NCBI RefSeq assembly: GCF_053078305.1
Contig: NZ_CP166879.1
Reading direction: 5' to 3' (one strand)
Length of the DNA: 64,000 nucleotides
Shown here: positions 57,117-58,051 of the stretch, one piece after another
Layout of the letters: every line of letters begins with the position of its first letter
Numbering within the stretch: the stretch's first letter is position 1
Made by a program: the position numbers and the translations under genes
Notes under the pieces: generated by a model
Databases searched by the model: none
What the model saw: only the letters and a program-made list of their open reading frames with translations
What the model was told of the DNA's origin: nothing

Positions 57117-57409
57117 AGTTCTAAAAGTAGTTTTCAATGATAAATAAATGGCTATTTTTACGAAGAGATAATAACGTAGATTGAAACAATATGTATTATT
57201 GATTGAGTAAATGGGATTATTCTTCACACTACATCCATTTTAGTGTCACTACCAAAGAAAAAGGGGCTACGTTTTCATGTAACCCCTTGATTTATTTGGT
57301 GGGCTAGCAGTGACTGAATTGGTGCTGTAATTGGTTGAAATATTTCATCTAATGTCTGGTTCAACTTTCCTTAGCTGCCTGAAAGTTTTTTGATCTCACC
57401 CAGCAATAA

Positions 57410-57530
57410 CAGCGTTACGGTGCACCACGCCTGACTGAAGAACTGCGTGCTCAGGGTTACCACTTCAACGTAAAACCGTGGCAGGAGGTCCGGACTGAAA
57501 AAACTGGTCAGGACATCATCGGCAGGGAAC
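57410..57530 (+). pseudogene. Fragment of an IS3-family transposase (integrase core)
   Basis: Short in-frame stretch translating to [25 protein letters not shown] with no start codon or full ORF. Confidence 0.5.
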
Positions 57531-57544
57531 GCACTGCTAGTCTG

Positions 57545-57660
57545 TAAACTGAACCGACTGGGGCGCAGTATGTGGCATCTTGTCGTGCTGTTGGAGGATC
57601 TGTGCGAACGTGGTATTAACTTTCGTGCTCTGGCCCAATCTATATTTGCCAAACAATGGG
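57545..57660 (+). pseudogene. pinH: Fragment of a Pin/Hin-type serine invertase (resolvase catalytic domain remnant), pinH-like
   Basis: Translates to KLNRLGRSMWHLVVLLEDLCERGINFRALAQSIFA, resembling the serine recombinase region ..LDRLGRS..L..RG..F.SL.; truncated on both sides. Confidence 0.55.
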
Positions 57661-58051
57661 GGGACGAATGCTGTAAAAGTAAAACAATCTGCGATCTCAA
57701 AGTTATTGTGTGATTTTTATGTGAGCAGAAGATATTCATCAGAAACGATTATGTAAATCATTTTATTTTGCCAACGGCCTCATTGTCGAAAGAAAAGAAT
57801 ACGCCCGTGTTTCCTGAATAGATTGACTTTTTTATCCAACCACACTTCAGCGCACTGCGTTTAAAAAATGCCTCATTCTTATGCGGAATATCATCATTTC
57901 ATCATGATGTCTTTGATGAGCGGTGAACACAATACACTTGCGCTGTCTCTTCAGGATGAATCCCCTGGTCTGGTGCCTGTGGGCTGATGTTGCAGCAAAG
58001 CTAAGGTCGCTTAAACGCTACTCAGTATTCACTTTTCAGAGGATGAAATTT

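Follow-up and report, generated by a model that had tools for sequence, protein, structure and literature searches.

The closest described counterpart of the DNA considered here is pinH (b2648) of E. coli K-12 MG1655, a pseudogene at the same locus, where its neighbours are likewise ypjA, ypjB/ypjC (a single fused gene, ypjCB, in the present DNA) and ileY. The closest described elements are the insertion sequence IS3 (insE/insF; IS3 family, IS3 group) and the Hin/Gin/Cin/Pin serine DNA invertases, in particular PinE of the cryptic prophage e14. We compared these with a short interval in a 64,000-nucleotide stretch of DNA, referred to below as the window. We put at about 93% the probability that this interval consists of two non-functional mobile-DNA remnants, fused to each other in the ypjCB-ypjA spacer of E. 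coli. Together they make up the annotated K-12 pseudogene pinH plus a scrap of IS3 that is annotated in none of the records inspected. Compared to intact IS3, the scrap keeps about 7% of the element. It shares the left repeat (17–18 of 18 bases) and nt 543–618 (92% identity) in the same orientation, and is without orfA, the frameshift site, the DDE catalytic core and the right inverted repeat. Compared to Hin/Gin/Cin/Pin, the invertase scrap retains only codons 42 to ~100 of 184, from the middle of the catalytic domain, with 82% DNA identity to K-12 pinE and 67–74% amino-acid identity. Neither the region of the nucleophilic serine nor the C-terminal helix-turn-helix is left in it, and the crossover sites, the promoter and the invertible tail-fibre segment are gone as well. 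With the Ser10 region, helix-turn-helix and crossover site missing from the one, and orfA, the DDE core and the right end missing from the other, neither piece is functional.

The window from 54.9 to 63.2 kb is the E. coli ileY-ypjCB-pinH-ypjA-ssrA region. It contains the tRNA gene ileY (54895–54969), a gene for a YpjCB family protein (55722–57116, plus strand), a pseudogene labelled by PGAP as 'recombinase family protein, incomplete; missing N-terminus and C-terminus' (57477–57644), the ypjA/EhaD autotransporter gene (58052–62632) and the tmRNA gene ssrA (62793–63155), with smpB next. Annotations of PapRG-06-5 were applied to 54.9–62.6 kb only; the window differs from PapRG-06-5 away from the locus. 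The order in the same interval of MG1655 is ileY, ypjC, ypjB, pinH, ypjA. Both ileY and ssrA are classical integration sites, so the island (~7.8 kb) lies between two such sites. In this window ypjCB is intact (464 codons, 34% GC); it is split into ypjC and ypjB in K-12 and carries a frameshift or internal stop in several other strains. At the other end of the island, the distance from ypjA to the ssrA 3' end is only ~160 bp, with no prophage between (62633–63155). Elsewhere this gap holds CP4-57 (K-12) or a P4-like element (PapRG-06-5).

By megablast, 3,002 of the 5,426 complete E. coli genomes have 57100–58060 in collinear form (91–100% identity), the pin piece was found in 3,102 genomes, and about 55–57% of sequenced E. 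coli have the island. A scan with YpjCB of one genome per species recovered only two E. coli-like contaminant contigs, at least one of which carries an identical scar. The genome-reduced strain DGF-298 has the region deleted (PMC10652928), showing that it is dispensable. The island between ileY and ssrA is low in GC, and the relics produce a mosaic composition: GC content is 53% in the IS3 scrap and 51% in the invertase scrap, versus 33% in the left flank and 39% in the right flank. Searching Rfam at E values up to 1 gave tRNA ileY as the sole RNA family match, and a promoter and terminator scan gave no signal above shuffled expectation with the exception of a hairpin at 57261–57288. This GC-rich hairpin (AAGGGGCTACGTTTTCATGTAACCCCTT, 10-bp stem) lies ~150 bp past ypjCB; it was scored as terminator-like on the minus strand, and a T-rich run also follows it on the plus strand.

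The invertase scrap spans 57483–57660 on the plus strand and was detected by blastn, local alignment, tblastn and Pfam, as well as by the PGAP annotation. By blastn, 57486–57632 matches pinE nt 124–270 (PinE residues 42–90) without gaps at 121 of 147 positions (82%, E 6e-40), and an extended local alignment adds a degraded tail to about pinE nt 302 (~57660) with a 4-nt deletion. By tblastn against the 64-kb window, PinE residues 38–94 align to 57474–57644 in frame +3 (38/57 identical, E 1e-18). The Resolvase profile (PF00239) scores 28.2 bits, over its 23.3-bit cut-off, across profile positions 63–102 of 145. Homology to the N-terminal catalytic domain of resolvases and invertases is thus present. 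However, the domain is incomplete: Ser9/Ser10 are missing, PinE codons 1–41 being replaced by IS3 sequence, and the homology begins at pinE nt 124, three bases past the IS3 piece. It also stops at about PinE residue 94–100, before the C-terminal helix-turn-helix. The closest intact relatives are e14-type pinE alleles (82–86% DNA identity; 85.8% for the best within E. coli). Phage and plasmid invertases reach at best ~70–72% amino-acid identity, with P2-like phage invertases, and those of Fels-2 and SEN8, at ~70%. A search of all 64 kb with a degenerate consensus for the 26-bp pix/gix/hix/cix crossover site, allowing up to 3 mismatches, gave no matches, and pinE nt 124–270 is the sole homology to the e14 invertible region found in the window by blastn. 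The lack of a residual crossover site fits the loss of the 5' end of the invertase gene and of everything upstream of it.

K-12 pinH (NC_000913.3 2783065–2783304) aligns over all 240 of its 240 bases to 57474–57713 on the plus strand (99.2% identity), and differs from this window by two base substitutions only. The corresponding 80-codon frame runs from the IS3/pin junction into unrelated sequence. The K-12 feature starts within the last 9 bp of the IS3 scrap and extends 50 bp beyond the invertase homology. All strains inspected except one carry the PGAP label of an incomplete recombinase given above. Literature matches to 'pinH' were mostly noise; the O157 'PinH' that a proteome study detected is a different gene, the intact invertase of CP-933H.

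The IS3 scrap lies immediately to the left and has two parts, both on the plus strand. The first (57391–57408) is a remnant of the left terminal inverted repeat, IS3 nt 1–18, and the second (57408–57482) is an internal fragment, nt 543–618 of the 1258-bp element, encoding InsF/OrfB residues ~60–83. The relic in this window reads TGATCTCACCCAGCAATA followed by ACAGCGTTACGG. For the internal fragment, blastn aligned 57408–57482 to IS3 nt 540–615 (K-12 IS3A numbering) with 70 of 76 positions identical (92%, E 5e-27) and one 1-bp deletion near the 3' end. K-12 InsF residues 57–83, the only detectable part of the orfA-orfB transposase with its programmed frameshift and its DDE core, align to 57395–57475 in frame +2 (21/27 identical, E 6e-8; tblastn against the 64-kb window). 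The HTH_21 profile (PF13276) scores 22.1 bits, under its 28.1-bit cut-off (E 1.8e-4). InsE gave no significant match in the window. IS3 right-end sequence is absent from the entire window, and of the two terminal repeats only the left one is present.

These results bear on a sequence-only reading of the window, which had placed two in-frame fragments, one of an IS3-type transposase and one of a Pin-like invertase, at 57400–57700. Both fragments are real, are at that place and have scores well beyond chance, and both can now be named: the former is IS3 itself, matched over the N-terminal region of orfB/InsF with the left end beside it, and the latter is K-12 pinH. They are in different frames, however, and the IS3 piece starts at 57391. 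The tblastn check that the same reading had proposed, performed with K-12 InsF, InsE and PinE, returned exactly two significant matches and no other IS3 or Pin pieces in the 64-kb window. The gix/hix-like site it had suggested looking for is not there, and the left terminal repeat of IS3 had escaped it.

Whether the left 18 nt are truly the end of IS3 determines how many deletions the relic has undergone. The canonical reference for the left repeat is the left end of K-12 IS3B, TGATCTTACCCAGCAATAGTGG. The window matches IS3 here at 17 of 18 bases, and K-12 and five other alleles, which have T for C at 57397, match at 18 of 18. The same bases match the IS3 right repeat at 12/18 and internal IS3 nt 526–543 at 11/18. 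The internal stretch (GGCTTTTACCCGGTCAAA) does resemble the left repeat, and in some alleles the internal blastn match reaches nt 531, so 57391–57408 could be read as a diverged continuation of the internal fragment, making the relic one contiguous piece (nt 526–618) with no internal deletion. We consider this very unlikely. The adjoining 76 nt are only 8% off IS3, and the K-12 allele would need seven mutations that all converged on the repeat. Since the 18 nt fit the left repeat far better than the internal sequence, we favour a single IS3 copy, oriented left to right, which lost nt 19–542 and afterwards all sequence past nt 618. A different proposal about the surviving end is that it attracts new IS3 copies, by end-targeted transposition or homologous recombination, and so is still shaping the locus. 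Ten genomes do have intact IS3 within the relic or slightly past it, five per orientation. In the same-orientation set, four insertion sites were mapped (after 57425, after 57460, 57534–57536 (twice) and 57889–57891). However, identical probes placed inside ypjCB and inside ypjA recovered 10 and 11 genomes for one orientation, and the 5 versus 5 split at the relic shows no orientation bias. New copies thus show no preference for the relic over its neighbours, which are struck at least as often, and we give very little credence to the attractor proposal. The whole ypjCB-pinH-ypjA island is a recurrent landing zone for intact IS3 (5–11 genomes per 650-bp probe window), and some of the new insertions are accompanied by loss of downstream DNA.

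The preferred reading, two fused and inert remnants, was further examined with eight diverse alleles spanning 91–100% identity. All eight share the same three junctions, the placement of which is precise to ~1–6 bp only. Since ~3,000 of 5,426 genomes carry the scar and eight diverse alleles have identical junctions, the scar is old. Nucleotide diversity over the relic is 0.04–0.11, like the remaining spacer, and dN/dS is 0.70–1.27 across all six frames, showing no selection on any reading frame of the relic. The invertase piece is accordingly no intact ORF maintained by purifying selection. At positions where the alleles differ, one of them often agrees with pinE. When the pinE-like state is taken wherever any allele has it, identity to pinE rises from 82% to 89%, which fits decay from a pinE-like ancestor. 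Against this background, the pinH frame (57474–57713), or a 47-codon ATG-started ORF within it (57570–57713), might still be supposed to encode a small functional protein derived from the invertase catalytic domain, for instance one that modulates intact Pin enzymes. Six of eight alleles have the frame open, the conserved KL(D/N)RLGRS segment is kept, and one strain is annotated with a 62-aa 'recombinase family protein' CDS that has no pseudogene flag. Yet dN is at least as high as dS among the alleles (ratio 1.27), and the frame is interrupted by a stop codon in one allele and by a frameshift in a second. Furthermore, the homologous N-terminus has no start codon, the Ser10 region and DNA-binding domain are absent, and the last ~17 codons are unrelated and belong to the ypjA upstream module. 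A functional pinH protein is therefore extremely unlikely. A real gene on the opposite strand, overlapping the relic, is almost certainly the wrong interpretation of the 122-codon antisense ORF (57371–57739, minus strand), even though this is the longest ORF in the spacer, is open in six of eight alleles, and in one strain has a 53-aa 'hypothetical protein' annotated by PGAP over its 3' part. It has no Pfam match, its dN/dS (0.83) equals that of stop-filled frames, and amino-acid changes are spread over its full length. One allele is frameshifted with internal stops and another is without the C-terminal frame. Broken in two of eight alleles and with a dN/dS like that of other frames, it is a chance or shadow ORF, and the sequence-only reading was right to call it an artefact.

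On the right, the upstream region of the ypjA autotransporter module (57664–58051, plus strand) starts 3–6 bp past the end of the invertase fragment. Within it, 57667–58022 has 89% identity to a paralogous locus, ymgI-ymgJ-ycgI, which lies next to minE and is present in nearly all E. coli. There, a 356-bp upstream region runs straight into the final 355 bp of a ypjA-like gene, and that 355-bp end matches 62288–62642 of the window at 96%. Since the two parts are directly fused, the minE-side autotransporter remnant is an internal-deletion derivative of a ypjA-like gene. Judged from these alignments, the invertase fragment stops where a discrete autotransporter module of ~5 kb (57667–62642, comprising ypjA and its upstream region) begins; no terminal repeats were found on the module. 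One explanation, which we regard as doubtful, is that a prophage invertase gene was the site at which the ypjA cassette inserted or recombined, and that the coincident edges record the arrival of the cassette. If this were true, the scar would be a datable junction of autotransporter gene traffic, and not mere decay.

Several other features of this boundary were noted. Two stretches, 57700–57759 and 57880–58059, are near-invariant among the eight alleles (diversity ≤0.012, compared to 0.04–0.12 in the neighbouring spacer), and the former is also nearly identical in the minE-locus paralogue. These stretches are probably ypjA promoter or leader elements. A hypothetical ORF of 39 codons is annotated at 57868–57987 on the plus strand (WP_001120794.1; 'ATPase' in some strains). 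Its nucleotide sequence is conserved, but its differences from the paralogue are all non-synonymous (dN 0.058, dS 0), so that it looks like a conserved non-coding leader rather than a protein. In E. coli O157:H7 (Z1816), a strain-specific deletion, equivalent to 57637 to ~61880 of the window, runs from the end of the invertase fragment into ypjA, so that just the final 753 bp of this gene remain.

Together, the junctions suggest the following history. A prophage-type element with a tail-fibre invertase would once have resided in the ileY-ssrA integration hot spot, and an IS3 copy would have landed beside or within it. One illegitimate deletion, between imperfect direct repeats (11/18 identical), may then have removed IS3 nt 19–542, and a second may have joined IS3 nt 618 to pin nt ~124. 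The 3' half of the invertase gene would have been lost at the start of the ypjA module. Thereafter, the scar would have drifted neutrally and been inherited vertically by the island-carrying E. coli (~55–57%). Since none of the genomes showed a more complete, intermediate state, how many deletions took place, and in which order, is reconstructed and not observed. A synthetic probe joining the left flank to IS3 nt 1–150 recovered no intact IS3 at the relic's own insertion point, only new insertions nearby. No att-like repeat of the ileY or ssrA 3' end was found within the island to attest to former prophage residence.

This stretch is ordinary E. coli genomic debris, and the pinH pseudogene within it was already known. 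What is added here is the IS3 terminal repeat and internal IS3 deletion, an exact map of the junctions, and the finding that a duplicated autotransporter module has its edge directly beside the scar. The ypjCB-ypjA spacer would appear to be inert debris. For the K-12 pinH feature, the most fitting description is a fusion of two scraps, one from IS3 and one from an invertase gene, and the long antisense ORF does not merit the name of a gene. Because its junctions are shared, the scar is useful as a neutral marker of how old the ypjCB-pinH-ypjA island is and of its vertical inheritance, and it illustrates how the ileY-ssrA hot spot gathers and erodes mobile DNA.
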